Positions 22,820-53,388 of a stretch of 64,000 nucleotides of DNA are shown here, one piece after another. Each line of letters starts with the position of its first letter. Position 1 is the first letter of the stretch. The stretch spans positions 4,088,735 to 4,152,734 of the forward strand of contig OZ241969.1 of NCBI GenBank assembly GCA_965204165.1. Direction: 5' to 3'. The translations under genes and the position numbers were made by a program. This DNA comes from Candidatus Poriferihabitaceae bacterium (GTDB lineage: Bacteria > Pseudomonadota > Gammaproteobacteria > Arenicellales > Poriferihabitantaceae). Under the pieces are notes generated by a model. It was not told where the DNA came from, made no database searches, and was given only the letters and a program-made list of their open reading frames with translations.

Positions 22820-22850
22820 TTGCTCTTTCCTGGTCGAGATTGCATATAAT
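22820..22850 (+). promoter_or_regulatory. candidate sigma70 promoter for the RiPP export operon
   Basis: Perfect TATAAT at 22845-22850 in a locally AT-richer spacer. TTGCTC at 22820-22825 gives a long 19-nt spacer; the alternative is an extended -10, TGcATATAA. Confidence 0.3.
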
Positions 22851-22914
22851 CTCCCAAATCTTCACTCAGACCGAATGAGATTCTCTTTGTCCTTGCTGGA
22901 TCTCTACGAGGAGG

Positions 22915-23478
22915 TTGCCCGCGGTCGTGTTCAATAATCCATTTGATTCATTTCACAATACGGTTGCCGAAGCAAAGGAGGAACGCGAACAGCTCGACCG
23001 GCTGCTGACAATCTCCACGCCCCGGGAGCGTCTGCTGGTCGCCGCCATCGCCGTGATGCTGCTCATCCTCGGGACCTGGTTCTTCTATGGCAACGTGCCC
23101 CGCAGCCTTGCGCTGGACGGCGTGCTGGTCGAGCCCGGCGAAGGCCTGTCCGAGGAAAGCAGGTCCTTGCAGGCGCTCGTCTGGGTCAAGAGCGACATCG
23201 CGCCGTATATAAAGGCCGGGATACCGGCGGTGATAGAGCTGGATATGGCGGACGGAAAGGCGGACACGCTTGACGGGGAGGTCGCGGACATTTCCGCCGT
23301 ACCCCTGCAAGGAGGGCTGGCGACGCTCGAGACCGCGGTGCCGGTGTCCGTCCACCGCATCGTCGTCACGCTCGATGAAAGTCACGACCTGACTTCCCTT
23401 GTGGACGGGGAGTGCCGGATCTTCCTCGAACTTGGCAGGCAATCACCGATTGCATTGTTCCGAATGAAGCAATCGTAA
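22915..23478 (+). CDS. short HlyD-like periplasmic adaptor of the NHLP bacteriocin export system
   Basis: 187 aa. The N-terminus (EQLDRLLTISTPRERLLVAAIAVMLLILGTWFF) looks like NHLP-system HlyD proteins, but the coiled-coil hairpin appears absent. Start (TTG 22915 or GTG 22927) is uncertain. Confidence 0.65.
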   Translation: MPAVVFNNPFDSFHNTVAEAKEEREQLDRLLTISTPRERLLVAAIAVMLLILGTWFFYGNVPRSLALDGVLVEPGEGLSEESRSLQALVWVKSDIAPYIKAGIPAVIELDMADGKADTLDGEVADISAVPLQGGLATLETAVPVSVHRIVVTLDESHDLTSLVDGECRIFLELGRQSPIALFRMKQS

Positions 23479-23479
23479 G

Positions 23480-25684
23480 ATGGTCGCCTCTAAAGGGGCT
23501 GCCGGTCAGGCCGCCACAGACTCCCGGAAACGGAAGGTAGTCACCCCGGTCCTGTTGCAGATGCACGCGTCGGAATGTGGCGCAGCCTGCCTCGGCATCA
23601 TCCTGGCCCACTTCGGGCGCTGGGTGCCGCTTACCGAATTGCGCGAAAAATGCGAGGTGAGCCGCGACGGCAGCAGTGCCGCGAGCATCCTGCGCGCCTC
23701 GAGACACTACGGCCTCGAATGCAATGGATTCAGCATGCGCGCCGAGCAACTGCAAAAGCTGGAACTGCCCCTGATACTGTTCTGGCAATTCAGCCATTTC
23801 GTCGTCCTCGAGGGGTTCGACGGCCGCAACTACCATCTCAATGACCCGTCCACGGGACGACGCAGGCTTTCCGTTGAAGAATTCAACAAGGGCTACAGCG
23901 GCGTTGCACTACGGTTCAAGCTCGGCGCCGATTTCAAGCCCGGCGGCGAGCAACCCGGCCTGTTCAGGCAACTGGGCACCCTGCTCGGCGGATCATGGAA
24001 TGTGCTTGCCGGGGTGATTGCCTGCGGGTTCATGCTGACGTTGCTGGCACTCCTCGTCCCCGTATCCATCAGTGTTTTCGTGGACGACGTCCTGGAAAAC
24101 CATGGACCCTGGGGCGGACTGGTGGCGGCCCTGCTGTGCGGCGGTGTCCTGGTATACATCCTGTCCCTGCTCAAGCACCGGTTCCTGAAGCGTCTCGCAA
24201 CCCGGATTTCGGTGACCGGCTACAATCGAGGCCTGTCGCGCCTGTTGCGGTTGCCGGTGGAGTTTTTCGAGCACCGGCTGGCCGGCGACCTGACCGACCG
24301 GGTCTCGTCCATTGACAGAATCGCGAAGAATCTGACGGACCAGTTCCTCGTGCTCATGATCGACATGGCCATGAGCGTGGTGTTGCTCATCGCCATGCTC
24401 GCCTACGATATCCGGCTGACGCTGGTTGTGCTGCTGCTGGCGCTTGTGCACGGCATCCTGGCCCACTTTCTGAACGCCCACCGGGCGGTCCGAAGCCAGA
24501 CGATGAGGCGCGAACAGGGATTGCTGATCGGCCTCGGCATGCAGATGCTGAACCATGCGGACAACCTGCGCATGACGGGAGCGGATGACCGGTTTTTTTC
24601 GCGCTGGAGCGGTCAGCAGGCACGCGAACTGCAGGCGCGCCAGGCCTATTCCGAACTGGGTTCCGTCAACACCGCGCTTCCGGGCCTGATTGCCACACTT
24701 CGCAGCGCGGCGATCCTCGGCATCGGAGGCAGCATGGTCATGAGCGGGCAGATGACCCTGGGGGCGCTGGTGGGCTTCTATATCCTGGCAGAACTGTTCC
24801 TGACCCCGATCGGGCACTTCCTGGAATTCGCCGACAAGCGCCAGGCGCTCGAAACCGACCTGCAGCGGGTCGATGACATCTCCAAGGCCGCCGAAGACCC
24901 GGTCTTCAACCGCCGGAGTCCGGAATCGGACTCGATTCCCACGTTCAACGGCCGGCTCCAGCTGGCAGGCCAGCTCGAACTGCGCCATGTCACCTTCGGT
25001 TTCAACAAGAGCCGCCCGCCCCTGATCAAGGACTTCAGCCTCGTGATCAGGCCGGGACAGCGGGTTGCCGTGGTCGGTCCCAGCGGCTCCGGCAAGTCGA
25101 CCCTGGCGCGCCTGGTTTCGGGTGTCTATCAGCCCTGGTCGGGGGAAATCCTGTTCGATGGCCACCTGCGGGATGAGATACCCGAGGAAGTGCTGCGGCA
25201 GTCCATTTCCATGGTGGATCAGGAGGTCGTGCTCTTTTCCGCGTCCGTACGCGACAATATCACCCTGTGGAATCCGGCCATCCCGGATGAAGCCATTTTC
25301 ACCGCGACGCGGGATGCCCAGATCCATGACGAAATTCTGATCCGGCCCCAAGGATATGCGACCCTGGTCGAAGAGGGCGGGGCGAATTTCAGCGGCGGCC
25401 AGCGGCAACGGCTGGAAATCGCCCGCGCGCTGGTGGGCCATCCGACGGTACTCATCCTGGACGAGGCGACCAGCGCTCTCGATGCCGCGACTGAGGAATT
25501 CGTTGATGATGCCCTTCGGCGGCGCGGCGTCACCTGCCTGATCGTGGCTCACCGGCTGAGCACCGTGCGGGATTGCGATGAAATCATCGTGCTCGACAAG
25601 GGCGTTACGGTGCAGCGCGGCACGCATTCCGAGCTGATTGCGGACCGGGAAGGCACGTACTACAAGCTGGTCAAGTCGGGCTGA
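23480..25684 (+). CDS. NHLP-family bacteriocin export ABC transporter, C39 peptidase/permease/ATPase
   Basis: C39 Cys/His motifs (ECGAACLGII, HFVVLEG), 6-TM domain, Walker A GPSGSGKST, signature FSGGQRQRL. Confidence 0.9.
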   Translation: MVASKGAAGQAATDSRKRKVVTPVLLQMHASECGAACLGIILAHFGRWVPLTELREKCEVSRDGSSAASILRASRHYGLECNGFSMRAEQLQKLELPLILFWQFSHFVVLEGFDGRNYHLNDPSTGRRRLSVEEFNKGYSGVALRFKLGADFKPGGEQPGLFRQLGTLLGGSWNVLAGVIACGFMLTLLALLVPVSISVFVDDVLENHGPWGGLVAALLCGGVLVYILSLLKHRFLKRLATRISVTGYNRGLSRLLRLPVEFFEHRLAGDLTDRVSSIDRIAKNLTDQFLVLMIDMAMSVVLLIAMLAYDIRLTLVVLLLALVHGILAHFLNAHRAVRSQTMRREQGLLIGLGMQMLNHADNLRMTGADDRFFSRWSGQQARELQARQAYSELGSVNTALPGLIATLRSAAILGIGGSMVMSGQMTLGALVGFYILAELFLTPIGHFLEFADKRQALETDLQRVDDISKAAEDPVFNRRSPESDSIPTFNGRLQLAGQLELRHVTFGFNKSRPPLIKDFSLVIRPGQRVAVVGPSGSGKSTLARLVSGVYQPWSGEILFDGHLRDEIPEEVLRQSISMVDQEVVLFSASVRDNITLWNPAIPDEAIFTATRDAQIHDEILIRPQGYATLVEEGGANFSGGQRQRLEIARALVGHPTVLILDEATSALDAATEEFVDDALRRRGVTCLIVAHRLSTVRDCDEIIVLDKGVTVQRGTHSELIADREGTYYKLVKSG

Positions 25685-28629
25685 TGAAGGACGCCGGACC
25701 GCAATACACATCCATCGCAGAGCTCGCCGCAAGCTCCGGCACAGCCGTGCCCTGCGCCGGCAACCTGCCGGTCAGGCTCGACGATCCGGACAGCGTCTGG
25801 TTCATCGATCAGGGCGCCGTCAACCTGTTTCTGATCGAATTCAAGGACGGGGTGGAACAGGCGGCACCACAGCATCTGCTGCGCCGGGATTCGGGATGGT
25901 TGCTGCCGGGCGTCGCCCCGGACGTACGGGACGATGGCCAGGACACTACGCTCAGCCTGATGGCCAAGGGAATGCCGGGCACAATGCTGAAACGGCTGCC
26001 GGCGTCCCTGCTGTCCCAGGCCGATCCGACGGAACTGGCGGAGCAGGCCGACACCTGGCTGAACGCCATCACCGGCACGCTGTCGCGCTTTGCGAGCCCC
26101 CTTCCGCGTCCGAACGCCTTGGCCGAACCCGGTCTGGCGCAAACCCTTTCTCCCCCCTGCACGCTGTCCACACGGCACCGCGTGGTATGGGTCAGCAAAC
26201 CGTCGCACGGCGCAGTCCTGTTCATGGATATCGTCGACCAGGCGGAACTTGCCGAGGCCGGCGGTGCAGGCGAAACCATGCTTCCGCTGACACGGACCAG
26301 CTGGATCACCCTGTTCGAAGAGACGACACTGACGGGCCAGTCTACCGAAACATTGGCGCAGCAAGGCACGCTGCTGCCGGCGCTCGCCACCTTCCACGCG
26401 GTCGCCTTCACCCTGGAACGCCTTAACCGCCGCCTGGCCGTGGTCGATGACGTGAATCTCGAGCGCGCGCGGACAACCAGCCGCCGCACGGCCGAAAAGG
26501 TTGCCAGGCAACGGCTTTTCAATATCTATGATCTGCCCATTGACCGGGATGCCAGTGTCGAGGACACGGCTCTGGAAGATGCCCTGCAGGTCATCGGCCG
26601 CCATGAAGGCATCGATTTCAGGATTCCGGCGCGCACGGGACCTGCCGATATTCCGATCGGTCTCGTGGACGTTCTCGACGCATCGGGCGTACGCGCCCGG
26701 CGCGTGCGTTTCAAGGACGAGGGAACCTGGTGGCGCGGGGACAGCAACGCGATGCTGGTATTCCGCCCGGAAGACGGGCAGCCCGTGGCGTTGCTTCCGG
26801 GAATGTTCGGGCGCTATCGGGAATACGACCCGGCCACCAAGCGCACTACGCGGATTACCGCGGACCGCGCCAGCGCGCTTGGAGAGGAAGCCTGGATGTT
26901 CTACCGGCCATTGCCGTCGGGGAACGTGAATCCGGCAGACCTGCTGAAAATCGCCCTGCACGGGTCGGCCGCGGATCTGGCGCGGCTGGTGATTGCCGGG
27001 CTCCCGGGCGGCCTGATCAAGCTCCTGCCGGCACTTGCGCTCGGATTCGTTGCGCATGAAGTTACTGCGGGCGGAAACGTCGAGGCGCTCTATGCCGTGG
27101 CCGTGGCGCTGGCGGGATTCGGCCTGCTCGGCGCCCTGCTGCATCTTCTTCAGGGCACTGCGATGATGCGGCTCGAGGCGCGCGCAGCGTCACGGGTCGA
27201 AGCCGCCTTCTGGGACCGCCTCATGCGTCTTCCGCCAAGCATCCTGCACCGCCAGCCGGCAGGCGACCTGGCCATGTCGGGAATGACCTTCCAGAATCTT
27301 CGCGACGGCCTGCAGGGAGTCGTTGCCGACAGCTTCCTGTCGATCATTTTCCTGCTTCCGACGTTCGGCGTCATCTTCTTCTACGATGCCACCCTCGGGA
27401 GCATCGCCCTCGCCTTCAGCCTGGCGTCCCTGCTGATCATCGCGGTCCTCGGATGGCGCCAGATTTTGCCGTATGGCCGGATGATCAGTGCGGCGCGGCG
27501 CGTAGCCGGCCAGCTGTTCCAGATCGTGGGCGGCATTACCAAGCTGCGCGTGGAAAATGCGGAAGGGTCGGCTTTCGCCATCTGGGCGCGGGGCTACCGC
27601 GAGCAGAAACGCGCGGAACTCGAACTGGGCGCGCTCGAGGGGCATTCCCGGGCATTTGGCGCCGCGCTCCCCTTTCTCGCCGGCGGGGTACTGCTTTTTG
27701 CGGTGGTGTCGGTGGGAGAACGGAACGTCCCGGTCGGCGATTTTCTTGTCGTCTACACGGTCTTCATCGTATTCCAGACCGCCATCGCCCGGCTCGGCGA
27801 GTCCTTCGGCACCGTTGCCGCCATGCTGCCGGCGTTCGAACAGATGCGCCCGCTACTCACCGCGGTTCCCGAGGCCGAGGTCGAAGGAGAGCCGGTTGAA
27901 TATCTGGGCGGCGACATCCTGTTCGACCACATTTCCTTCCGCTATGATCCCGACGGTCCGCTGATTCTCGACGGGGTCACGATCCGCGCCCGCCCCGGCG
28001 AATTCATCGCGATTGCCGGCGAGTCCGGTGCCGGCAAGAGCACCCTATTCCGGCTCGCACTCGGCATTGACCGGCCAACCGCCGGTGCGGTGTATTACGA
28101 CGGCCGTGACCTCAGGCACCTGAATCTGAAGCAGGTGCGCCGGAAAATCGGCGCAGTGCCGCAATCGGTGGGGCTCCATCCCCAGGACCTCTGGGACAAC
28201 CTGGTCAGTCACCACGACGAAGTGGCGAACGAGGAAGTATGGACCGCTGCCCGGGTCGCCGAAGTGGAAGACGAGATCAGGAGCATGCCCATGGGCATGA
28301 TGACCATGGTCGGCGCCAGCGGATCTGTCCTGTCGGGCGGCGAGAGCCAGCGCGTCACGATCGCCCGATCGGTGATCGGCAACCCGCGCATCATGCTGTT
28401 CGACGAGGCCACCAACTGGCTGGACAACGAAAGCCAGGCCAAGGTAATGCGGAACCTCACAACCCTGACAGCCACCCGGATGGTTATCGCCCACCGCCTG
28501 TCCACGCTGGAACAGGCTGACCGCATCTACGTGCTGCAGGCCGGAAAAGTCGTACAGAGCGGCTCCTTCGACGAACTCATGGCGGTCGACGGGGTATTCA
28601 AAGAACTGGTCAAGAGACAGGTCGCCTGA
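25684..28629 (+). CDS. NHLP-family bacteriocin export ABC transporter, permease/ATPase with N-terminal cNMP-binding-like domain
   Basis: 981 aa. N-terminal ~300 aa beta-rich domain, then TMD, Walker A GESGAGKST and LSGGESQRV. Start overlaps the upstream stop (TGATG). Confidence 0.85.
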   Translation: MKDAGPQYTSIAELAASSGTAVPCAGNLPVRLDDPDSVWFIDQGAVNLFLIEFKDGVEQAAPQHLLRRDSGWLLPGVAPDVRDDGQDTTLSLMAKGMPGTMLKRLPASLLSQADPTELAEQADTWLNAITGTLSRFASPLPRPNALAEPGLAQTLSPPCTLSTRHRVVWVSKPSHGAVLFMDIVDQAELAEAGGAGETMLPLTRTSWITLFEETTLTGQSTETLAQQGTLLPALATFHAVAFTLERLNRRLAVVDDVNLERARTTSRRTAEKVARQRLFNIYDLPIDRDASVEDTALEDALQVIGRHEGIDFRIPARTGPADIPIGLVDVLDASGVRARRVRFKDEGTWWRGDSNAMLVFRPEDGQPVALLPGMFGRYREYDPATKRTTRITADRASALGEEAWMFYRPLPSGNVNPADLLKIALHGSAADLARLVIAGLPGGLIKLLPALALGFVAHEVTAGGNVEALYAVAVALAGFGLLGALLHLLQGTAMMRLEARAASRVEAAFWDRLMRLPPSILHRQPAGDLAMSGMTFQNLRDGLQGVVADSFLSIIFLLPTFGVIFFYDATLGSIALAFSLASLLIIAVLGWRQILPYGRMISAARRVAGQLFQIVGGITKLRVENAEGSAFAIWARGYREQKRAELELGALEGHSRAFGAALPFLAGGVLLFAVVSVGERNVPVGDFLVVYTVFIVFQTAIARLGESFGTVAAMLPAFEQMRPLLTAVPEAEVEGEPVEYLGGDILFDHISFRYDPDGPLILDGVTIRARPGEFIAIAGESGAGKSTLFRLALGIDRPTAGAVYYDGRDLRHLNLKQVRRKIGAVPQSVGLHPQDLWDNLVSHHDEVANEEVWTAARVAEVEDEIRSMPMGMMTMVGASGSVLSGGESQRVTIARSVIGNPRIMLFDEATNWLDNESQAKVMRNLTTLTATRMVIAHRLSTLEQADRIYVLQAGKVVQSGSFDELMAVDGVFKELVKRQVA

Positions 28630-28722: not shown

Positions 28723-30024
28723 ATGAAGAAACCTGCTGATGCAACCGATCGCATTGCTTCAAGAGCCGCCGAGGACAGCGACTTTCGCGCACGCCTTGTC
28801 ACGAATCCAAGGGAAACGATCGCAAGGGAATTCGGCGTTTCCCTGGACGAAGACCATGAGATACACGTGCACGAAGAAACCTATTCCGCCACGCACGTGG
28901 TGCTCCCGCCGCGCAGCAAATTCAGCGAGGCCGAGCGGAAGGAGGCGAAAGCCGGCGCAACGTCACTGGCGTTTCTTCGCAGGACGCTCCACGACCCCGC
29001 ACCGCCCATGCGCCCGCCCGCCCCCGAACGGGTGCGCTCCCGCAAGCACGCCGCCACCCCGAAGTCACTTGCCAAAGAGGGCAGGGAATGCATCCTCCGT
29101 GGCCTGGCCTTCCTGGAATCCGTGGTCGACGAATCCGGGGCCTGGCACTGCATCAGGTTCAATATCGCCGATCCGGACATTCCGCGGCATTTCGAAAAGC
29201 CCCCGTTCATTTCGGCCCATTGCGTGCTTGCCCTGGAAAGCAGCGATGAAGCCCGGGCCAAGGCCCTGTGCGACGCCACCAGGAAGTATCTCGGCAGCAC
29301 CATCGAGTATCCCGGATTGTGGCGCTACTACCGCCATCTTCCCCAGGATCTTGACAGCACCGCCGTCTGTTCGCTTGTCATCGGGACCCACCCCTGGATC
29401 TTTCTGGGAAGGAATGTCCGGCGAATACTGGCGAACCGCGACGACAACGGCTGTTTCATGACCTGGATGCTGGATGAAGCCGAACCCGATGTCGTGTCCA
29501 GCTTCCGTATCGAAGCCGATCCTGTGGTCAACGCGAATGTCATCGCCTACCTCGGCGACCACCCCGAAACCAGGGACGCCCAACGGTGGCTGGAGGCCCT
29601 GATCACCGAGGACCGGCTCAAGGACTCGTCCAAGTGGTATCCCGACACGGTCACGATCTACTATGCAACAACCCGTGCCATGATGCGCGCCGAACCCGCC
29701 CTCGACAGTCTGCGGCCGATACTTGCGGATCGAATCCTTGACCTGGGCGGCGGGAAGGGGGAATTCGGCAACCTCCTCCAGACCGCACAGGCGGTCTCGG
29801 CACTCTATAATATCGACCGCCTTGAAAGTATCGACGTGAAACGTCAGGTGGAAAGGATCATCGATTCGCAGCGTGAAGACGGCAGCTGGCCGGAACTGCT
29901 CGCGTTTGGCGACCAATCGCTGAGATGGGGCGCGTTCGGACAGATCGGGCACGGCTCTGAATCCGTGACCACCGCATTTTGCATCGAGGCCCTGGAGCGT
30001 CTCGTCGAGACCCTGGAAGCCTGA
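28723..30024 (+). CDS. NHLP leader-like domain fused to a squalene-hopene-cyclase/prenyltransferase-like alpha/alpha toroid domain
   Basis: Residues 1-78 align without gaps to the precursor at 31476-31727, including Ala-Gly at 77-78. The rest carries VVDESGAW, NRDDNGCF and SQREDGSW repeats, and GLWRYYRHLPQDLDSTAV resembles GGW..DxDDTA. Confidence 0.7.
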   Translation: MKKPADATDRIASRAAEDSDFRARLVTNPRETIAREFGVSLDEDHEIHVHEETYSATHVVLPPRSKFSEAERKEAKAGATSLAFLRRTLHDPAPPMRPPAPERVRSRKHAATPKSLAKEGRECILRGLAFLESVVDESGAWHCIRFNIADPDIPRHFEKPPFISAHCVLALESSDEARAKALCDATRKYLGSTIEYPGLWRYYRHLPQDLDSTAVCSLVIGTHPWIFLGRNVRRILANRDDNGCFMTWMLDEAEPDVVSSFRIEADPVVNANVIAYLGDHPETRDAQRWLEALITEDRLKDSSKWYPDTVTIYYATTRAMMRAEPALDSLRPILADRILDLGGGKGEFGNLLQTAQAVSALYNIDRLESIDVKRQVERIIDSQREDGSWPELLAFGDQSLRWGAFGQIGHGSESVTTAFCIEALERLVETLEA

Positions 30025-30235: not shown

Positions 30236-31354
30236 ATGGATATTGACGAGGCAATCATTCTTACCCAGGACCGTCTTGCCGAAGAGGGCGGCAGCATGGG
30301 TGAACTGCTCGGACAGTTCCGGAACCGGGTCTCGCCGATTCTGATCGGAGACCCCGAATGGAAGCGCATCCTCGAATGTGCCGGGAAACTTCCCATCACA
30401 ATGGGCGCCCTTCCATTCGGCTTTGAACTGCCGCTTCATCTGCACAGCCCGCAAGCGGATTTCGGAGTCTCCATGGCGAGCGGGACCAGGACAGCGGATT
30501 TCTTCCATGAACGCGCCCGGACCGACACGAAGGATGAAACCGCCAGGGCGGTCTCGCGGCTGTTCAGGCAAATGGATTCCGGGCACTCTCCCCTGCGTGA
30601 CGTCGTCGGCCGCAAGCTGATGCTTGAATATGACATCGGTTCGGCGCGGGACGGGGAACGTTCGCTTCCGGGCATGTTCCTGAGACCCGGAGAACGCCCG
30701 ATCATCGGCGCCGGCGGCCAGGCGGATGAGGTCGGCATGGTGGTCGACGCGCTCGTTTCCTGCCTGGGCTGGGAAATGAATGATGACCAGCGGAATAATG
30801 TCCAGCGGGTTTACCTAGCGCAGCCGGAGGATACGCGCATGGATTCGTTTGGTGTTTTCCCGTCCCGCTCACGGTCAATTCGCCTGGCGATCATGGGCTT
30901 CAAGACGCCGCAGGAAACATGCGGCTATCTTGAACAGACGGGTTGGCCGGGCCAGATCTCGGCTGTCGATTCCGTGCTCGCACGCTTCCGGGAACGGGTG
31001 AAGATCGTCCGGACCGGGCTGAATATTGATGTTCGGGATGAGGGGGTCGGCCCGACGCTCGGCCTGACCCTCATTGTCAAGCAGAGATATACGAAGGATT
31101 CACGGTACTGGATCGACGGCCTGACCGACTGGGACCCGTTACTGAAGGCCTTGAGCCACGAGGACCTTGTGGCTCAGGAGAAACTGACGGCGCTTGCCGA
31201 CTGGGTTTCGAAACCGACAATTCTGTTTGCGAAGTCCGGGCGCTTTGTCCTATTGCGCGGCATTCACCACATCAAGCTGGTGATCACCGAAAACCGGCTG
31301 GGAAAAGCCAAGGCCTACGTATTTATGGTGCTTTCCGGGGCGGTCCCGGAATAG
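30236..31354 (+). CDS. hypothetical protein (372 aa), possible ABBA-barrel fold
   Basis: GAGGA RBS 6 nt before ATG 30236. Ten short alternating beta-like segments in five pairs (FGFELPLH/ADFGVSMA ... HHIKLVITE/AKAYVFMV). No family was recognised with certainty. Confidence 0.6.
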   Translation: MDIDEAIILTQDRLAEEGGSMGELLGQFRNRVSPILIGDPEWKRILECAGKLPITMGALPFGFELPLHLHSPQADFGVSMASGTRTADFFHERARTDTKDETARAVSRLFRQMDSGHSPLRDVVGRKLMLEYDIGSARDGERSLPGMFLRPGERPIIGAGGQADEVGMVVDALVSCLGWEMNDDQRNNVQRVYLAQPEDTRMDSFGVFPSRSRSIRLAIMGFKTPQETCGYLEQTGWPGQISAVDSVLARFRERVKIVRTGLNIDVRDEGVGPTLGLTLIVKQRYTKDSRYWIDGLTDWDPLLKALSHEDLVAQEKLTALADWVSKPTILFAKSGRFVLLRGIHHIKLVITENRLGKAKAYVFMVLSGAVPE

Positions 31355-31404: not shown

Positions 31405-31475
31405 CATTCAAACACTCTATGTATGCGGACCCGGGTTGTTCCGCAAAATGGCCGGCTGATCACCGGCCGCTTCGT

Positions 31476-31727: not shown

Positions 31728-31825
31728 GACAGTACCCCTTTGATTTGGTTACGAACAATACACGACACAATAGCGGCTGAACGTAACATGACGATATGGC
31801 ATGGTCAAGAAATGCGGACGCCTGA

Positions 31826-33444: not shown

Positions 33445-33459
33445 GACGCCTGAAAGTAT

Positions 33460-34585: not shown

Positions 34586-34802
34586 TGCGGCCCGGCAACG
34601 CAATTGCGGCCCTCCTGCGTGAGGTCTACCTGTTGATGTATGGAGACTGGGACGAGAACTCCTGGGTCAGGAAGAGAATTACAACGCTTTCATCTTCGGT
34701 CTGGAACGCACTGTCTACACGCTGTTCGGCTCCCGGACGGACCTGACCTACGACGTACGACGCGACAGTTTCCCGGGTGTGGGATTCACGTACAGTTTCT
34801 GA
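34585..34802 (+). pseudogene. remnant of an outer-membrane beta-barrel protein C-terminus (frameshifted fragment)
   Basis: Frame ending at 34802 reads ...NYNAFIFGLERTVYTLFGSRTDLTYDVRRDSFPGVGFTYSF-stop, an OMP-like terminal Phe beta-signal. It has no start codon. An upstream piece (..YGDWDENSWV..) sits in another frame. Confidence 0.35.
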
Positions 34803-35060
34803 TGGCGTCCGTGGCAGGGGCCTGGCGATCCGCGGCGGGGTTATGCCATCGGCCGGGGAGTCGGATATCGCCCCCATGAGCGGATTTCATGTGCTGAATC
34901 AACCAATTACCTTCCTTCCCAAACGGGTCGTCCGGAGAATTACAGGTCCGGGGGCCATGAAAAAAACAAACGATGGTGCTAAGATGACGACAGGTTGCCG
35001 GGCAATTGGCACATCCAGGTTTCCATTCTGGCGCAATTGACCGGCATCTGCGGAAGTCAA

Positions 35061-35092
35061 TCAGGGTGATCCATCAGGGTGATCCATCAGGG
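35061..35092. repeat. 13-bp tandem duplication (TCAGGGTGATCCA x2.5) spanning the halogenase start codon
   Basis: Units at 35061-35073 and 35074-35086, plus a partial third at 35087-35092. Each full unit carries a GTG; only 35079 is in frame. Confidence 0.8.
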
Positions 35093-36353
35093 CAGCAAAT
35101 CCTTGCAGAAGATCGCGGTTGTGGGACGCGGAACCGCGGGGTCTCTGGCTGCCGCCAGCGTAACGCGCCTTCTCTCCGGCCGGGACTACGAGCTGCACCA
35201 CATCTATGACTCGCGTATCCCGGTCATCGGCGTGGGTGAAGGCAGCTGGCCGAGCCTGGTTCAGCAGTTGCAGCACCTGACGGATCTGCCCCACGATACC
35301 GTCCAGCAGCGTCTCAAAGGAACTCGCAAGTACGGGGTCGCATTCGAGGGATGGGGGGTGCGCGACCAGGATTTCACCCACTACTTCATGCCGGTAAAGG
35401 AGTCCTACGCCTATCACCTGTCCGCCGACCTGATGGGGGACCTGCTGCACGAAAGCACGCACGCGCGCCACATCGACGCGAAAGTGCTCGGGATCACCAG
35501 GGTGGACGGCGGCGCGGAAGTGGAATTCGAGGGCCTGGCGCCGGAACGCTACGACCTGGTCTTCGATGCCCGCGGATTTCCCAGGGAACTCCAGCCCGAA
35601 CAGCACATCGACATTTCGTTCATTCCCACCAATACGGCCGTCATCCGCCGCTGCCCGGCAATCTTCGGGGAGGATCGGGGCGGACCGGTCCTGCAACATA
35701 CCTATACCCGCGCGGTTGCGCGTCCGCACGGCTGGATTTTCGTCATTCCGCTTCAAGTACACACATCCTACGGGTACATCTTCAACCGCGATGTATCCGG
35801 CCTTGACGAAGTCGAGTCGGATTTCGATGCCTTCCTTGCAACCGATGGCGTACCGGAATTCGAGCAGCGCGCCGTCATCCAGTTCCCCAATTTCGTCCAT
35901 CGGCAGATGTACGACGGCGCGGTGGCCCGCATCGGCAATGCGGCGGCCTTCATGGAGCCCCTCGAGGCAACGGCCATCGTGTCCGCCCAGTTGCAGATCG
36001 GGATGGTCCTCCAAACGCGTCTCAACCGCCCAATCGAGCATATTGAACGCGACGCACCGGTTGTCAACCGGTTCCTCGTCAACAACATGCTCTGTTACGG
36101 CCTGTTCGTCGGCTGGCACTACTGCCTTGGCTCAAAGTACGACAGCGGGTTCTGGTGCCATGCCCGTGACCACGTCTGGCCACGGCACCGCAAGGCGGCG
36201 GCTCCCGAGTCCGTGGACTGCGACGCACTCCGCAAGTTCGACGGCATGTTCGAACTGATGCGCCAGCCGGAAATCGGCGAGGCGGACTGGAACCGGATGT
36301 GCGCAGTCCCCCTCACAAGCTATGACCAGATGTCCCGCGGTCTTGGCTGCTGA
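35079..36353 (+). CDS. FAD-dependent tryptophan-halogenase-family protein
   Basis: GxGxxG (VVGRGTAGSLAA), IGVGEGSWPSL, GWIFVIPL (WxWxIP-like) and FMEPLEATAI (F.EPLES-like). Confidence 0.8.
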   Translation: MIHQGSKSLQKIAVVGRGTAGSLAAASVTRLLSGRDYELHHIYDSRIPVIGVGEGSWPSLVQQLQHLTDLPHDTVQQRLKGTRKYGVAFEGWGVRDQDFTHYFMPVKESYAYHLSADLMGDLLHESTHARHIDAKVLGITRVDGGAEVEFEGLAPERYDLVFDARGFPRELQPEQHIDISFIPTNTAVIRRCPAIFGEDRGGPVLQHTYTRAVARPHGWIFVIPLQVHTSYGYIFNRDVSGLDEVESDFDAFLATDGVPEFEQRAVIQFPNFVHRQMYDGAVARIGNAAAFMEPLEATAIVSAQLQIGMVLQTRLNRPIEHIERDAPVVNRFLVNNMLCYGLFVGWHYCLGSKYDSGFWCHARDHVWPRHRKAAAPESVDCDALRKFDGMFELMRQPEIGEADWNRMCAVPLTSYDQMSRGLGC

Positions 36354-36409: not shown

Positions 36410-36808
36410 TCAGGCCAGGGTGTCCACCAGTCGCGCTTCCGTAATTCTGCGGTCCCGGGTCAGCAGCGTCGCGCCGAGCACCCGGGCCGTGGCAACCAGG
36501 ATGCGGTCTGCCGGGTCACGATGGAAGGAATCGGGCAACGAGGCCAACTCGGCCGCGATCGCCGGTGATATTCCATTTCGCCGCACCAGTGGAGGTGCCG
36601 CCAGCTTCCCCAGCCACTCCCGCAGGGGAATCGTGAGGCGAATCCGGCCAAGGCTGTGCAGCATGGCCACTTCCCACAGGGAGATATCGGAGATCAGCAA
36701 CGGCGAATCCGCATCGGCGGCTGCAATCACTTCCTGCTGGTCACGGGACAGCCGGCCCCGGTCTTCATGCCACCAGAGCAGAATGTGTGTGTCGAGCAGG
36801 GCCTTCAC
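36410..36808 (-). CDS. vapC: type II toxin VapC (PIN domain)
   Basis: 132 aa (LLDTHILLW..., acidic PIN residues). Overlaps the antitoxin stop by 4 nt. Confidence 0.85.
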   Translation of the reverse strand: MKALLDTHILLWWHEDRGRLSRDQQEVIAAADADSPLLISDISLWEVAMLHSLGRIRLTIPLREWLGKLAAPPLVRRNGISPAIAAELASLPDSFHRDPADRILVATARVLGATLLTRDRRITEARLVDTLA

Positions 36809-37059
36809 GGCTTCAGGACGTCCCAGTATTCTTCCGGCAACACCGGCTTCACAACATCCCCGACCAGTTCGACCGTCCCGGCCAGCTCGGCCTGGGGAAA
36901 CGCCCTGTCTTCCCCGGTAGGACGAACCAGCACCGCAACGGGTCTCCCGCGCTTCAGAATGACCACCCGTTCCCCCGTCTCATGGACGCGGTCAAGGATG
37001 GCAAGGCAGCGGGCCTTGAAGTCGGATGCATTGATGGTTGTCATATGACTAGTATCCAT
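36805..37059 (-). CDS. type II antitoxin (Phd/YefM-like)
   Basis: MTTINASDFKARCLAILDRVHETGERVVILKRGRPVAVL. The start may be 37044 rather than 37059. Palindromes GTCATATGAC (37040-37049) and ATGACTGGTCAT (37058-37069) lie at the 5' end. Confidence 0.75.
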   Translation of the reverse strand: MDTSHMTTINASDFKARCLAILDRVHETGERVVILKRGRPVAVLVRPTGEDRAFPQAELAGTVELVGDVVKPVLPEEYWDVLKP

Positions 37060-37211: not shown

Positions 37212-39611
37212 ATGGTCGCAGTAGCAGTTTCCACAGATCGGGCGATAGAGCCGTCACTACGGAACGCCATTCCGCATTTCCTGCCCCTCGCGGTCTTTCC
37301 CCTGATTTTCGCCGCCGCCCTGTACGGCGGCTGGTGGATCGCCGGGCCGTTCGTCTTTTTCATGATCGCGGGTCCGCTGGACCTTGCCTTCGGCCTGGAC
37401 GGGCGGAACATGAACCCGAGGGCGACACCGGAACACCGGCTGGTCTGGTACAACCTGTCGGCATGGCTTTGGGCATTGCTCTGGCCGGCGGCATTCGTGT
37501 TCACGCTATGGCAGATCTTCATGGTCGGACACCTGGCTCCCTGGGAAGGTGCGCTGCTGGCGATTGTGCTGGGCGTGGAAGGTCAGGGAGTATTCATCGT
37601 CGGGCACGAACTGATTCACCGGCGCACGACGTGGGAGCGGTACGTCGGGGAATTCCTGCTTGCCTCCGTTTCGTACCCGCACTACGCCACGGAACATTTC
37701 TATATCCATCATGCCTATGTCGGCACGCCGAAAGACGTGGGCTCCGCGCCCAAGGGACAGAGCTTCTGGACGTATTTCCCCCGCGAGTTGGCAAGCAACA
37801 TCCTTGGGGCCTGGAAGGTTGAACGCGGACGGATGGCGCACCGGCAGTTGCCGACCTGGCATTTCAGCAATCCGTTCTGGCGGTACGGCCTTGAAACCGC
37901 CGCCTGGTACGCGTTCGTCTATGCGTTGGGGGGATGGTGGTCTGTTCTGATCTTCATGTTCCTGTGTCTCGGGATCGTGTTCTCGATGAAAATCAGCAAC
38001 TACGTCCAGCATTACGGCCTGCGCCGGATACGCCTGCCCAATGGCCGGTTCGAAAGGGTCAGCCTGCGGCATTCATGGGGCGCCGACTACAAGTTCAGCA
38101 ACTGGATGTTCTTCAACATGCAACGCCATCCCGACCACCATGTCTCGGCGGGCAGGCGCTACCCGCTGCTGCAGCATCACGGCGAAGACGAAACTCCCCA
38201 GCTGCCGGGAACCTACGGCACGATGTTTGGCCTGGCCCTGCGCCCGAAGCGCTTCTTCGAGACGATGGACCCTCTGGTGGATCAATGGCGGGCCCACTTC
38301 TACCCCGAAATCGAGGACTGGAGCGCCTACGACAGCCCGGTTTCCGAGGCACGCCCGGAGGCACTCGACGCGATCATGGAGATTTACGGCGCCGCTCCCC
38401 GCCTGGTCAGGGTAATCGAGAGGGACCCGGAACTGCTCGATAGCCTGAAGGACAGGGAGTTCACCGATCTGGAGATGCCCGAGGGATTCGGACCGGACCC
38501 GGAATTTGAAAGGATTGCCCGCAGCGGCCTCGTGCGCGTCTACTGGACCCACGAGTTCGGTGTCGTGGAAATGAAGGAACAGATCGCCGAAATACCGGTA
38601 AAGGATGCCGCCGACGCCGCGGAGATGGTTCGGGACTGGTCGAACAACAAGGTGTTCCAGATCGGCATGCATACGTTGCGCGGCAACCTGACGCCGACCG
38701 AGGCCGGGATCGCGCTGGCCAATGTCGCCGAATCCTCGATCGACGCCGTTCTACAGGCCGTCGTGGAAGATGTTGCCGACCGTGATCCCCGCCCGGACGA
38801 AGGCGGGATGACCGCCGTCATCTTCGACGATCTGGCCAGTCGGGAAGTCGCGCCCCGTGCCGCACTCGAGATCATGTTCGTTTTCGAGGGCGGATCCGCC
38901 GATCGTCATGCGGCCCTGTACCGCCTGTATCATGGGGCACTTCGCATACTGACCCGGGCCAGCCTGCTGTTCGAGCCGACATCGGGGAAAGCCCGCGATC
39001 GCGGCGTCTATGCGCTTGACGAATTCGTGGAACACCACCGGACCGCTCCGGCAAGCGAACTGCTGGACCTGACCCGGGCGCGGTGGATCTTTACCCAGGG
39101 AGAACCCGGTATCGGGCAACGTTTCGATGATGCCCGATATTCCCTGCTTGCCGACGGCCCGACACGGGATGCGCTGATCCGGGAGCTGGGCAACGGGGCA
39201 GGCAATGAAACCAGGACCGGACAATCGCTGATCTCCAGCATGCAACAGGGGCTCCGTGATGTCGAGCGCGCCGCACGCCTGCTGCAGTTGACCCACCTGC
39301 CGGAGATGCCGGGAAGCCTGATTACCAGCAACGCGGCTTCCGTTTTCCAGGCGGGCCAGGCGCTTGAAGTGATTCCCCGTGAGGTTGCGGAGCAACTTTC
39401 CGGGGCTGCCCGCATGTGGCGGAACCTGTACGGCATCCGGCAACTGGTCATGGAGGATGACACGCCGGTCGAATCCATGCCAGACAAGGTCAGGACGGCC
39501 TTTGCCCGGTCCTGCGACCATGCCGATTTCGACGAGTTGACCGAAGCGGTCCGGGAAGCCACCGCCGCCACCGAGAGCGGACTGGCCGCCATCATCGCCC
39601 GGGGCAGTTGA
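37212..39611 (+). CDS. AlkB-like membrane di-iron hydroxylase/desaturase fused to a degenerate GlnE-like (adenylyltransferase-type) domain
   Basis: His boxes HELIHRR, EHFYIHH, NYVQHYGL and MQRHPDHH lie in residues ~130-340. Residues ~400-799 resemble GlnE repeats (..IGMHTLRGNLTPTEAG.., ..LDLTRARWIF.., ..GLRDVERAARLLQL..) but lack the GKLGG-type motif. Confidence 0.75.
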   Translation: MVAVAVSTDRAIEPSLRNAIPHFLPLAVFPLIFAAALYGGWWIAGPFVFFMIAGPLDLAFGLDGRNMNPRATPEHRLVWYNLSAWLWALLWPAAFVFTLWQIFMVGHLAPWEGALLAIVLGVEGQGVFIVGHELIHRRTTWERYVGEFLLASVSYPHYATEHFYIHHAYVGTPKDVGSAPKGQSFWTYFPRELASNILGAWKVERGRMAHRQLPTWHFSNPFWRYGLETAAWYAFVYALGGWWSVLIFMFLCLGIVFSMKISNYVQHYGLRRIRLPNGRFERVSLRHSWGADYKFSNWMFFNMQRHPDHHVSAGRRYPLLQHHGEDETPQLPGTYGTMFGLALRPKRFFETMDPLVDQWRAHFYPEIEDWSAYDSPVSEARPEALDAIMEIYGAAPRLVRVIERDPELLDSLKDREFTDLEMPEGFGPDPEFERIARSGLVRVYWTHEFGVVEMKEQIAEIPVKDAADAAEMVRDWSNNKVFQIGMHTLRGNLTPTEAGIALANVAESSIDAVLQAVVEDVADRDPRPDEGGMTAVIFDDLASREVAPRAALEIMFVFEGGSADRHAALYRLYHGALRILTRASLLFEPTSGKARDRGVYALDEFVEHHRTAPASELLDLTRARWIFTQGEPGIGQRFDDARYSLLADGPTRDALIRELGNGAGNETRTGQSLISSMQQGLRDVERAARLLQLTHLPEMPGSLITSNAASVFQAGQALEVIPREVAEQLSGAARMWRNLYGIRQLVMEDDTPVESMPDKVRTAFARSCDHADFDELTEAVREATAATESGLAAIIARGS

Positions 39612-39668
39612 CGGAACCGCCAGGTGCGGCAACATGCAGGGCACAGTACAACAAGACCGGTGCAGGCC

Positions 39669-39761
39669 ATGACCACCCCGGGTTCCGCCTGCGGGTGCGG
39701 GATGTGCCGCGGCGGCTGTTGCGCCGGAAACCTGAAAGAAATCATGCGCAGCCATGGATGA
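39669..39761 (+). CDS. candidate Cys/Gly-rich small ORF (30 aa; 45 aa if GTG 39624)
   Basis: MTTPGSACGCGMCRGGCCAGNLKEIMRSHG. Its stop overlaps the heterocyclase start (ATGGATGA). Not in the ORF track because it is under 60 aa. No strong RBS. Confidence 0.3.
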   Translation: MTTPGSACGCGMCRGGCCAGNLKEIMRSHG

Positions 39762-42054
39762 ACGCGGGCGGCTGAAGGCTACTGCCGCAGACTTAAGTGA
39801 GATAGAACGACCGGTACTTACACCGCATCTCGAATACCGCCCGATCGGCGACGGGCAGGTGCTCCTGGTTTCCGAGACCTTCAACACACTGCTGCACGGA
39901 AAGGTATACGGGGACCTCCTGCCGCTGCTGGACGGCAGCCGCGCGCGGGAAAGCATCGTCGTGGCCCTTGACGGGATGCATCCGGCAGCGGACGTGCGCA
40001 AGGCCCTGGCCTCCCTGGCCGCCAAGGGCTACGTCGTTTCGGGCGATCACGGCATGGACCGGGGCAAGGCGGCATTCTGGTCCTCTCTCGGCGCGTCCCC
40101 CCGCCGGGCCGAGGAGCGGTTGGGTGCCGCGGGGGTGGCGATTCATGGCGACGACGGACGTCTCGCGGAACGGCTTGAAAGCCTGGGTGTTGCACCCGGT
40201 TCCGACAGCCCCGCCCTGTCCGTCTATGTTGCCTCCGACTATCTCGATGACGAATATGACGGGATCAACCGGCATCACCTGGAATCCGGCACGCCCTGGA
40301 TTCTGATCCGGCCGAGGGGCATGCAGCCCCTCTTCGGTCCCGTCTTCCGGCCCGCGGAGGACAGTCCCTGCTGGGCGTGCCTCTCCTACCGGTTACGGAA
40401 CAACCAGGAAGTCCATTCCTTCTTGCGCAACCTCTCCGGCAAGGCGGCGGCCTTCCGACCCACTGCAGCCGAACCGGCGGTACTGGACGTCGTCTGCGGA
40501 ATGGTCGCCGTCGAGATTGCCAAGTGGCTGGTTCTCGGCAAAGCGGCACCGCTGCACGACAAGGCAATCACACTGGATACTGCCGGCATGAACTGCGAGC
40601 ATCATCCGGTCGTCCGCCGGCCGCAATGCCCGGTTTGCGGCAGCGAGGCGTACTACAGCCCCGACCGGCCGGCAACGCCGGTACGGCTGCAGGCCAGCCC
40701 GAAGGAGCTTCGCAACAGCGGCGGTTTGCGTGCCATGTCGCCTGCACGGACACTGGAAAAGTATGAGCACCTGATCAGCCCGGTGAGCGGTGTCGTCACA
40801 TGGGTCGCGCGCACGACGCCGAAGACGGATTCCTGGCTGCATGTACACTGGGCCGGCAGCAATCTCGCATTGAGAATCAAGAACCTGAGTTCACTGCGCC
40901 GCAGCCTGCGGAGCAAGAGCGCCGGCAAGGGAAGCACTGCGGAGCAATCCAGGGTGAGTGCCCTGTGCGAGGCGATCGAACGCTATTCCGGGGCCTTCCA
41001 TGGCGACGAAATCCGCTGCCGCAGACGTCTGGCGGATTTTGCCGGCAACGCAGACGGGCAGGCGATACACCCGAACGAAGTCCAGTTGTTCAGCGGTTGG
41101 CAACTCGACCATGCGGAAAAGATCAACGCCCGCGGCCACCCCTACAATGTCGTTCCGCCCCGGTTCGACCCGGACAGGGAACTGGACTGGTCTCCCGTGT
41201 GGTCGCCCACCCGGGACCGGCAGCGCTATCTGCCGACAGCCATGCTCTACGGAATGACCCCGGAACAGCGCGGCACCGCGGGGCTCTGGGCCGATTCCAA
41301 TGGATGCGCCGCCGGCAACACCCTCGAGGAAGCCGTGTTGCAGGGATTCTATGAACTGGTCGAACGCGACGCCTTTGCAATCTGGTGGTACAACCGACTG
41401 CAAAGACCCGGCGTGGACCTCGAAAGCTTTGGCGACGAATACCTGGCATCCGCGCCCGGTTACTACCGTGAATATCATCGTGACATGTGGGTGCTGGACC
41501 TCACCGGTGACCTGGAGATCCCCGCCTTCGTTGCACTGTCCCGCAGGACCGACAGCGAAACGGAAGACATCATCTACGGTGCCGGCGCACACTCCGATCC
41601 GCAAATTGCGGCCCTCAGGGCCGTTCGCGAGCTGAACCAGTGCCTGACCTGGGTTCCCCGCCCGGGCACTGGCCACACCCGCTACGGGGTCGACGACCCG
41701 ATGTGCCTCTGGTGGTGGAAGAACGGGAAACTGGCGGACAACCCCCACCTCGCGCCTCTGCCCAATGCCAGGCTGCGAAGCAGTTCGGATTACGCGCCTC
41801 CGGAAACGGAGGATCTGAGACAGGACGTGGAATGGTGCCGGGGGCTGGTTGAGGCCAGGGGGATGGAGTTTCTGGTACTCGACCAGACCCGCCCAGACAT
41901 CGGCATGCCGGTGGTGCGCGTGATCGTGCCCGGCCTGCGTCATTTCTGGGAACGGTTCGCTCCGGGACGCCTTTACGATGTGCCGGTGGCACTGGGCTGG
42001 ACCGGGCAACCACTCAAGGAATCCGACCTGAATCCCGTGCCCGTCATTGCTTGA
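39754..42054 (+). CDS. PatD/TruD-like fused E1-like (RRE) + YcaO cyclodehydratase (azoline-forming heterocyclase)
   Basis: 766 aa. N-terminus LEYRPIGDGQVLLVSETFNTLLHGKVYGDLLPLLDG parallels cyanobactin heterocyclases. YcaO motif SALCEAIERYSG and a Pro-rich C-terminus NPVPVIA. Confidence 0.9.
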   Translation: MDERGRLKATAADLSEIERPVLTPHLEYRPIGDGQVLLVSETFNTLLHGKVYGDLLPLLDGSRARESIVVALDGMHPAADVRKALASLAAKGYVVSGDHGMDRGKAAFWSSLGASPRRAEERLGAAGVAIHGDDGRLAERLESLGVAPGSDSPALSVYVASDYLDDEYDGINRHHLESGTPWILIRPRGMQPLFGPVFRPAEDSPCWACLSYRLRNNQEVHSFLRNLSGKAAAFRPTAAEPAVLDVVCGMVAVEIAKWLVLGKAAPLHDKAITLDTAGMNCEHHPVVRRPQCPVCGSEAYYSPDRPATPVRLQASPKELRNSGGLRAMSPARTLEKYEHLISPVSGVVTWVARTTPKTDSWLHVHWAGSNLALRIKNLSSLRRSLRSKSAGKGSTAEQSRVSALCEAIERYSGAFHGDEIRCRRRLADFAGNADGQAIHPNEVQLFSGWQLDHAEKINARGHPYNVVPPRFDPDRELDWSPVWSPTRDRQRYLPTAMLYGMTPEQRGTAGLWADSNGCAAGNTLEEAVLQGFYELVERDAFAIWWYNRLQRPGVDLESFGDEYLASAPGYYREYHRDMWVLDLTGDLEIPAFVALSRRTDSETEDIIYGAGAHSDPQIAALRAVRELNQCLTWVPRPGTGHTRYGVDDPMCLWWWKNGKLADNPHLAPLPNARLRSSSDYAPPETEDLRQDVEWCRGLVEARGMEFLVLDQTRPDIGMPVVRVIVPGLRHFWERFAPGRLYDVPVALGWTGQPLKESDLNPVPVIA

Positions 42055-53382: not shown

Positions 53383-53388
53383 TGGTGA

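Follow-up and report, generated by a model that had tools for sequence, protein, structure and literature searches.

We analyzed a window of 64,000 nucleotides (nt), the whole stretch of DNA considered here, from Candidatus Poriferihabitaceae bacterium (assembly GCA_965204165.1, contig OZ241969.1, positions 4,088,735 to 4,152,734 of the forward strand). Our subject is a gene cluster in this window for a ribosomally synthesized and posttranslationally modified peptide (RiPP); coordinates count from the first nucleotide of the window. The locus is very probably the srp (sponge-derived RiPP proteusin) biosynthetic cassette, present as an intact copy in the chromosome of a gammaproteobacterial sponge symbiont. 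A preliminary description of this DNA had presented a RiPP island with a set of genes not known from any described pathway. This view has to be given up, as the locus is the published srp cluster, with its LCCCW core, and the finding in that form is already known. The genes listed in the description were all present, and the listing of open reading frames (ORFs) and profile scans gave the family assignments that it had proposed. The cluster was reportedly described by Nguyen et al. in 2021 (JACS; doi 10.1021/jacs.1c03474).

Three srp proteins provide the biochemical reference. SrpE is the proteusin precursor with the core LCCCW. SrpC cyclodehydrates this core and converts its three cysteines to thiazolines, and the flavin-dependent halogenase SrpI then brominates the C-terminal tryptophan, for which it needs the leader and its L(X)4L motif, NLTEEQL (PMC10858898, PMC10286304). 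SrpI was shown to be an obligate indole-6 (C6) brominase of the C-terminal Trp and to depend strictly on the leader (PMC10286304). The SrpE leader and SrpI sequences printed in the supplement of the latter paper were used for the alignments reported here.

The precursor gene of the window, srpE, lies on the minus strand at 31476-31727, which corrects the preliminary description. Its product of 83 amino acids (aa), ending in ...NITEEQLEAISAGLCCCW, matched TIGR03793 at 66.8 bits (cut-off, 50.9). It consists of a 78-aa leader with the motif NITEEQL, an AG cleavage site, and the core LCCCW. Alignment with published SrpE revealed 81% identity across 83 of 83 aa and an identical C terminus, EAISAG-LCCCW. 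The AG-LCCCW core was invariant in all 85 related loci that we compared. The leader motif differs from the published NLTEEQL. A sponge metatranscriptome study (Waterworth et al.; bioRxiv 10.1101/2023.06.09.544420) reported the ITEEQL variant and a very highly transcribed precursor gene of 252 bp that occurs across phyla; the window gene has the same length and the same variant. A G+C-rich, terminator-like hairpin with a T-run follows just past the srpE stop codon (31449-31469, minus strand; terminator-like site scan). A promoter-like TTGACC-17 nt-TACGTT lies upstream (31807-31779; the hexamers were assigned by eye, and the -10 hexamer fell below the scan threshold). Given these two sites, srpE looks monocistronic, and the hairpin fits the single, very abundant precursor message that has been reported.

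The halogenase gene (srpI; 35079-36353, plus strand; PF04820, 8e-43) encodes a flavin-dependent peptidyl Trp halogenase that is 79% identical to published SrpI over its full length; the pointer to SrpI in the preliminary description was the right lead. The catalytic residue K84 is conserved, as are Y102 and Y110, which correspond to the self-brominated Tyr102 and Tyr110 of SrpI (PMC10286304). Judging from the activity of its homologue, the window enzyme would be an SrpI-type brominase acting on C6 of the C-terminal Trp. The third core gene (39754-42054, plus strand) encodes a fused, SrpC-type cyclodehydratase with an N-terminal winged-helix (RRE-like) domain, an E1-like domain, and a YcaO domain (TIGR03604, 9e-79; TIGR03882, 3e-44; PF02624, 2e-95; PF21084, 2e-7). 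By analogy, this enzyme is expected to turn the three core cysteines into thiazolines. We found no azoline dehydrogenase in the locus, which is also the case for srp and had been stated in the preliminary description. The same description had recognized an NHLP/proteusin locus whose precursor, with its C-terminal Trp, would be modified by a YcaO enzyme and by a peptidyl Trp halogenase. Both points are supported.

The Cys/Gly-rich ORF of 45 codons between the AlkB-like and YcaO genes (39624-39761, plus strand; no family match) is a different matter. It does exist as an ORF, as the preliminary description had said; conversely, it is not a conserved gene. No counterpart was present in the AlkB-like/YcaO spacer of any distant locus, where the spacer is short and unrelated, and in L014 and L021, both close relatives, other codons stand in place of its Cys codons. 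We therefore rejected it as a second YcaO substrate. Since it is not kept outside close relatives and its cysteines change even there, it is probably spurious, no more than a chance ORF in DNA of 63% G+C.

The window proteins were compared with the 85 loci by tblastn. Gene shares were computed on the 54 distant loci with full 10-kb flanks, and they are minimum values, as a single flank does not span the whole cassette. ABC2, an exporter subunit, was present in 93% of these loci (71 to 84% aa identity), followed by an NHLP-fused protein (87%; 61 to 78%), a 372-aa protein (80%; 62 to 80%), the YcaO enzyme (74%; 61 to 67%), and an AlkB-like fusion (69%; 51 to 58%). The exporter ABC1 (54%; 78 to 85%) and a short HlyD-like protein (29 loci, 54%; 49 to 72%) were found in about half of the loci. 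A LolA-like protein (25 loci, 46%; 72 to 80%), an RND pump (24 loci, 44%; 78 to 86%), and the halogenase (43%; 68 to 82%) were seen less often. None of the 54 loci had the transposase, the PIN/Phd module, pcm, tolC, or the Cys/Gly-rich ORF of the window. Across the 85 loci, the same 11 genes travel together at 49 to 88% aa identity in shuffled order, in Gemmatimonadota, Alpha- and Gammaproteobacteria, Binatia, Chloroflexota, and Acidobacteriota. A common order is halogenase, LolA-like, srpE, 372-aa gene, YcaO, AlkB-like, NHLP fusion, ABC2, ABC1, HlyD-like, and RND. The AlkB-like gene adjoins the YcaO gene in most lineages; the window lineage differs from the published srp cluster in having this pair on the opposite side of the halogenase. 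The preliminary description had considered that each gene might have unrelated neighbors in related genomes; the co-occurrence comparison instead revealed one coherent gene set across phyla.

Relatives of srpE were found in at least 284 species genomes of several phyla in a scan of one genome per species. The best 80 were 84 to 94% identical and came from sponge metagenome-assembled genomes (MAGs) of Gemmatimonadota, Alpha- and Gammaproteobacteria, Binatia, Chloroflexota, Acidobacteriota, and others. Like published srp, the window cassette belongs to a family whose hosts are sponge-microbiome genomes from many phyla. Closest to the window in that scan were the gammaproteobacterial MAGs of L014 and L021, with 94 to 100% protein identity. 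An exact-sequence look-up placed the window precursor on five contigs, one of them from a sponge MAG. Two of the five are labelled NGUY21-1_SAMN175243xx, which suggests that they may come from samples of the 2021 srp study. Gene order and lengths on all five were as in the window, but the precursor and LolA-like genes were not separated by a transposase. The conserved genes of the window are full length and 99 to 100% identical to those of relatives free of the insertion sequence (IS), with no frameshifts or truncations. Since all conserved genes are uninterrupted and complete, this is not a locus in decay. Between phyla, the cassette proteins are 70 to 88% identical and the precursor 84 to 94%, with the order shuffled (L006-L085). 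Such identity in rearranged loci implies recent, repeated horizontal transfer with rearrangement inside sponge microbiomes, as judged from sequence comparison. In one 4.1-Mb MAG contig (CBDBZU010000004.1) there are three srpE-like genes (L033, L042, and L055), one with the cassette; the other two (84% identity) are orphans with no cassette genes within 10 kb.

Export and leader removal can be assigned to an NHLP-type system. ABC1 (23480-25684, plus strand) is a peptidase-containing ABC exporter (PCAT) with a C39 domain (TIGR03796, 857 bits with a cut-off of 853; PF03412, 3e-34). Its catalytic-Cys motif, QMHASECGAACL, was read directly from the translation. The preliminary description had seen no separate leader protease; on the TIGR03796 and PF03412 matches, the C39 domain would take that role, with an expected cut after ...EAISAG of SrpE. 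ABC2 (25684-28629, plus strand), the second exporter subunit, matched TIGR03797 over residues 295 to 980 at 666 bits, which does not reach the cut-off of 709. The 294-aa N-terminal extension of ABC2 (25684-26565) lies outside that model and had no Pfam or other family match. The short HlyD-like membrane protein (22915-23478, plus strand; 187 aa, against a model of 421 positions) matched TIGR03794 over about 50 residues (25 to 76) at 24 bits (cut-off, 156). Only ABC1 of this trio thus passes its curated cut-off, and the exporter probably works like the NHLP system (TIGR03794/03796/03797) in a divergent form. The HlyD-like gene is called as 183 aa in relatives and always adjoins ABC1. We rejected the possibility that it is a truncated pseudogene, as equal length is kept in other phyla.

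Two further envelope genes belong to the cassette. One encodes an RND/MMPL-type exporter with a sterol-sensing domain (HAE3/HpnN-like; 20421-22760, plus strand; PF03176, 4e-34; PF12349, 2e-14; TIGR00921 and HpnN models), and the other encodes a LolA_like/DUF1329 periplasmic protein of the lipid-carrier type (33683-34585, plus strand; PF17131, 6e-61), whose start is called at 33707 (292 aa) in relatives. The LolA-like protein is probably the partner of the pump. The possibility that these are unrelated neighbors was rejected, since both co-occur with srpE across phyla at 72 to 86% identity. The RND gene, which the preliminary description had taken as a border, is consequently part of the conserved unit, which starts at 20421. 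Similarly, that description had named three interruptions of the locus; the IS and the PIN/Phd module are insertions, but the LolA-like gene is a conserved member. Between the LolA-like gene and the halogenase there is an 83-codon ORF (34626-34877, minus strand; no family match), which public assemblies annotate as a gene. Weak counterparts (44 to 59% identity) occupy the same position in a few distant loci (L041, L050, L054, L069, and L079), and the ORF may be a small gene or merely a conserved intergenic stretch.

Three cassette genes code for proteins with no published srp activity. The first is the 372-aa protein (30236-31354, plus strand), which gave no Pfam (including the Trp_DMAT and Orf2-type families), NCBIfam, or PDB sequence match, even by profile. 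It has more than 900 homologues, all without names or Pfam domains. An AlphaFold2 model built on an alignment of 37 homologues (pLDDT, 83.8; pTM, 0.85) displayed five alpha-alpha-beta-beta repeats, with 10 strands in five pairs and two helices before each pair, which is the PT-barrel pattern. When this model was searched against the PDB with Foldseek, the top 50 matches were all ABBA aromatic prenyltransferases (best E value, 6e-6). Many were indole prenyltransferases (6-DMATS, 5-DMATS, PriB, IptA, and CymD); CloQ, NphB, EpzP, AmbP1/3, and AtaPT were also among them. The 372-aa protein is thus predicted to have the ABBA (PT-barrel) fold of aromatic prenyltransferases. Ten loci of the Gemmatimonadota/Longimicrobiales (L007, L008, L012, L017, L027-L029, L037, L043, and L063) carry srpE, halogenase, HlyD-like, ABC1, ABC2, NHLP-cyclase, and YcaO genes in this order. 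The 372-aa gene was not seen within their 10-kb flanks and is either just beyond the flank or truly absent; its presence or absence there bears on the prenylation hypothesis described below.

The second protein (433 aa; 28723-30024, plus strand) combines an NHLP-leader-like domain (about residues 1 to 78, ending in ...EAKAG) with a single-domain alpha/alpha toroid resembling class II terpene cyclases. Over residues 6 to 72, it matched TIGR03793 at 48.4 bits (cut-off, 50.9) and PF02979 (NHLP/nitrile-hydratase-alpha-like) at 32 bits (cut-off, 27). G78 is invariant in 36 homologues, and this ending is reminiscent of the SrpE cleavage site. More than 1,100 homologues are known, and an exhaustive search of cluster representatives gave 828 relatives. 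PF13243 (squalene-hopene cyclase [SHC] repeats) was weak in the window protein and in 36 of 36 srp members, and searches of the PDB with the single toroid sequence or a shallow profile returned marginal SHC and GGTase-beta repeat matches only. However, a deeper profile (A4), made from the window toroid domain and 49 relatives of 27 to 43% identity, matched drimenol synthase 9mhs at 1.9e-29 over 284 positions. SHC followed at 9e-24, AstC at 6e-20, the single-domain cyclases 8paj and 8pak at about 1e-17, drimenyl-diphosphate synthases at 1e-14 to 5e-16, and prenylcyclase 6ij1 at 8e-14; lanosterol synthase and MstE were also matched. In these profile alignments, toroid residue D211 aligns with D333 of AsDMS, the Asp that is mutated in the D333N structures. 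Based on these profile matches, the toroid domain appears to belong to the class II terpene cyclases. Foldseek matches of the modeled protein to such cyclases serve as a lead only, and the claim rests on the profile search. We also considered a LanC-like reading and rejected it, as there was no LANC_like match up to an E value of 1 and the core has no Ser or Thr.

Known class II terpene cyclases (AsDMS 9mhs/9m7d, SsDMS 8zg0, AstC, 8paj/8pak, and MstE 6sbg) share with the toroid a sequence profile (1e-14 to 2e-29) and an alignable acid motif, DLD(D/S)T in the toroid family and DDLDTT in the cyclases. The motif is DLDST (D209-T213) without exception in the srp subfamily and PPDLDDTA in the wider family. 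The srp domain differs from the known enzymes in its fusion to an NHLP leader-like domain within a RiPP cassette, in the serine at the third acidic position, and in having no HAD or class I partner domain. Proteins from other organisms link the toroid to the 372-aa family. Three fusions of 667 to 691 aa (P0373, P0347, and P0400) have an N-terminal half homologous to the 372-aa protein and a cyclase domain as C-terminal half. The homology was detected at 3e-9 for P0373 (against 150 sequences) and at 3e-5 over 301 columns by hhalign for P0347, and the fusions share the motifs FGFE, LE, IRL, R..IDV, HIK, and KAY. Natural fusions of this kind speak for consecutive action of the two srp proteins within one pathway. 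In other relatives from elsewhere (P0328, P0322, and P0313), the cyclase-like domain is joined to a cytochrome P450, a sulfotransferase, or a weakly Trp_DMAT-like region, which looks like a wider unnamed family of tailoring enzymes.

The third protein (37212-39611, plus strand) joins an AlkB-type membrane di-iron monooxygenase domain (about residues 1 to 360; PF00487, 2e-27) to a conserved middle region and a GlnE-like C terminus (GlnE models, 9e-19). The N-terminal domain matched PDB AlkB 8f6t at 3.8e-50, and its four His boxes (HELIHR, EHFYIHH, NYVQHYG, and QRHPDHH) were invariant in 44 homologues. In a profile over the same 44 homologues, the GlnE-like domain was poorly conserved. Its counterpart of what we take to be the nucleotidyltransferase motif, G-S...D-x-D, reads DDLAS...AALEI and looks degenerate by eye. 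An active nucleotidyltransferase was rejected on these grounds, and the domain is probably noncatalytic.

Taken together with the core enzymes, these three proteins led us to a tentative proposal, which may be right but which we would not count on: the cryptic srp product is a peptide-terpenoid hybrid, made by ABBA-fold prenylation (perhaps with farnesyl), cyclization by the NHLP-fused protein, and AlkB oxidation and placed in the envelope by the RND pump and LolA-like protein. In such a pathway, the 83-aa NHLP precursor SrpE would be bound through its leader, the SrpC-type RRE/E1/YcaO enzyme would convert three core cysteines to thiazolines on leader-bound SrpE, and the SrpI-type halogenase would brominate C6 of the C-terminal Trp via the N(I/L)TEEQL motif, as has been shown for close homologues. 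Going by the protein families, the C39 domain of the PCAT would then cut after ...EAISAG and export the pentapeptide, assisted by ABC2 and the HlyD-like protein. The predicted ABBA-fold protein may prenylate the peptide, most plausibly on the indole; the NHLP-fused class II cyclase-like protein would protonate and cyclize the prenyl chain; and the AlkB-type di-iron enzyme would oxidize (hydroxylate) the product. Finally, the HpnN-like RND pump and the LolA-like carrier would move the lipophilic product through the envelope.

A precedent for the step proposed for the 372-aa protein comes from the mpp biosynthetic gene cluster (BGC) of Moorena producens (MppE/MppM/MppC/MppI), where an ABBA enzyme geranylates the Trp indole only on leader-bearing peptide, beside an SrpI-like brominase (PMC12715784, PMC11791876). 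Both systems have a long structured leader, an SrpI-like Trp brominase, and, if our assignment holds, an ABBA-type enzyme for leader-dependent lipidation of the indole. They differ in that mpp makes a lanthipeptide, with a LanM enzyme and from a precursor with a Nif11 leader, and contains no YcaO enzyme. Moreover, MppC is recognizable as an ABBA prenyltransferase, whereas the srp protein is assigned by predicted fold only, and no terpene-cyclase-like partner has been described in mpp. Outside RiPPs, the drimentine pathway, in which a farnesylated Trp diketopiperazine is cyclized to a drimane, is a functional analogue. The literature that was searched made no mention of a prenyltransferase or terpene cyclase for srp; the 2021 and 2022 primary papers lay outside that search.

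Several points weigh against our reading of the locus, the hybrid product included. The cassette contains no prenyl-diphosphate synthase. No sequence link connects the 372-aa protein with known prenyltransferases, even with a profile that included the fusion proteins, and its ABBA assignment comes from a predicted structure with moderate TM-scores (0.44 to 0.57). The acid motif of the toroid is DLDS, not DxDD, the third Asp being replaced by Ser, and the AlphaFold2 model of the NHLP-fused protein was poor (pLDDT, 51). We know of no precedent for a peptide-bound prenyl chain as the substrate of a class II terpene cyclase. The halogenase, RND, and LolA-like genes lie within 10 kb of srpE in just 43 to 46% of the distant loci, which is partly an effect of flank length. 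The window YcaO enzyme was equated with SrpC by domain make-up and literature function, not by alignment with SrpC. The IS is located 98 bp upstream of the srpE start codon and could alter srpE expression. Lastly, a 2025 review describes the srp product as still cryptic and its ecological role as unclear, and the steps after bromination are our inference.

The strongest alternative, which stands at nearly an even chance of being right, is a minimal pathway. The product would be only the brominated tris-thiazoline pentapeptide, and the 372-aa, NHLP-toroid, and AlkB-like proteins would serve in immunity, regulation, scaffolding, or export. In favor of it, published activities in srp are limited to SrpE, SrpC, and SrpI (PMC10858898, PMC10286304). 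The missing prenyltransferase signature in the 372-aa sequence and the DLDS motif of the toroid point the same way, and the NHLP-like domain could merely dock its protein to the leader-binding machinery. However, the 372-aa, NHLP-toroid, and AlkB-like genes are tied to srpE in 80%, 87%, and 69% of the distant loci, respectively, compared to 43% for the halogenase. The matches by fold and by profile point specifically to prenyltransferases and class II cyclases, the 372-aa and cyclase domains are fused in other organisms, and the AlkB His boxes are invariant.

Alternatively, the NHLP-fused cyclase-like protein could itself be cargo of the C39 exporter. Its leader-like domain would serve as a double-glycine signal that is cut upon delivery to the periplasm, where the protein and the RND/LolA-like pair would jointly act on the exported peptide. 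This fits the alignment of the leader-like domain with NHLP leaders up to the invariant G78 and the resemblance of ...EAKAG to ...EAISAG of SrpE, as well as the presence of a dedicated PCAT and envelope transport genes in the cassette. PCAT cargos are normally small peptides, though, and a folded one of about 355 aa would be out of the ordinary. Furthermore, the fusion lacks the L(X)4L motif that C39 domains and SrpI make use of, its translation having KFSEAER instead. We consider the cargo role unlikely. Finally, the preliminary description had seen a fragmented locus, decaying or recently assembled from unrelated parts without coherent function, and this is scarcely credible: an IS and a toxin-antitoxin module do lie inside the locus and gene order does vary between lineages, but the same gene set occurs together across phyla at high identity, the genes show no frameshifts or truncations relative to IS-free relatives, the IS is intergenic with its target duplication intact, and the precursor family is highly transcribed in sponges.

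Compared with the published srp cluster, the locus carries an additional PIN/Phd module, and this strain alone also has an IS upstream of srpE. The IS4-family element spans 1,619 bp (31826-33444, minus strand; alignment with L001, PF01609, and IS4 models) and encodes an IS4-like transposase (32002-33312, minus strand; PF01609 and IS4 models). It has perfect terminal inverted repeats of 14 bp (CAGCAATTCCCGCT) and a 9-bp target duplication (GACGCCTGA; 31817-31825 and 33445-33453). The relative L001 has the empty site, with flanks of 99.4 to 99.7% DNA identity on both sides, and no transposase was found in the 85 related loci. The element sits between the divergently oriented srpE and LolA-like genes, 19 bp upstream of the -35-like hexamer of srpE. 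By its sequence, it is a recent, clean intergenic insertion outside the pathway. The PIN toxin (36410-36808; PF01850, 2e-13) and Phd/YefM antitoxin (36805-37059; PF02604, 4e-12) genes, both on the minus strand, lie between srpI and the AlkB-like gene. Beyond the window, both genes were confined to the close relatives L001-L003, L005, L014, and L021, and none of the 54 distant loci had them; on this distribution, the module is a lineage-specific insertion outside the conserved cassette. Downstream of the YcaO gene, pcm and tolC (plus strand) are ordinary chromosomal neighbors, and the wider flanks are likewise chromosomal, with topA and ilvA on one side and trkH, trkA, and rsmB on the other. 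Outside the cassette, long ORFs without a Pfam match (E value of ≤1e-5) occur at 15986-17659 (plus), 19377-20144 (minus), 546-2933 (plus), and 4064-5467 (plus); some may be spurious given the G+C-rich DNA. Two 1-kb stretches (53001-54000 and 62001-63000) have a G+C content of about 0.545, compared to about 0.62 to 0.65 elsewhere in the window.

Two other RiPP systems can be set beside the locus. The mpr BGC of Methylovulum psychrotolerans (MprE/MprC/MprD; ACS Chem Biol 2022, as cited in PMC10286304) is a proteusin azol(in)e pathway in which NHLP precursors are processed by a YcaO cyclodehydratase with an RRE domain, and SrpI accepts Mpr leaders. In contrast to srp, mpr has the azoline oxidase MprD and ten precursors, whereas the window locus has one precursor and no dehydrogenase, and MprC does not accept the SrpE leader. 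The preliminary description had also called the locus cyanobactin-like. This resemblance to the PatA/D/E/F/G pathways extends to the fused E1/YcaO heterocyclase (TIGR03882 plus TIGR03604) and, if the fold prediction holds, to an ABBA-fold prenyltransferase; the remaining hallmarks are absent. Among the ORFs between 20.4 and 44.3 kb, there were no PatA/PatG subtilisin proteases, no PatE-type precursor with recognition-sequence cassettes, and no macrocyclization signals. In addition, the srp leader is of the NHLP type, and a C39 ABC transporter would take over both export and cleavage.

The locus itself contributes little that is new. For this cluster family, publications on the precursor, cyclodehydratase, and brominase, and their use as biocatalysts, go back to 2021, and near-identical copies of the window locus are already public in sponge metagenomes. 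What remains of value concerns the mature srp product, still cryptic, and its role in symbiosis, although the precursor gene is among the most highly transcribed genes of sponge microbiomes. Our comparison defines an 11-gene conserved cassette, stripped of the IS, the toxin-antitoxin module, the Cys/Gly-rich ORF, pcm, and tolC. It also offers candidate functions for three "hypothetical" genes, namely, prenyl transfer, class II cyclization, and AlkB-type oxidation, to be followed by lipid-type export. To our knowledge, RiPP tailoring by a terpene cyclase with a fused leader domain would be of a new kind. If true, the hybrid pathway would account for the failure of heterologous work with only SrpC and SrpI to yield the natural product, and it would tell chemists which masses to seek. 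In that case, a brominated tris-thiazoline pentapeptide may not be the final product of this cluster, the most widespread RiPP cluster in sponge microbiomes.

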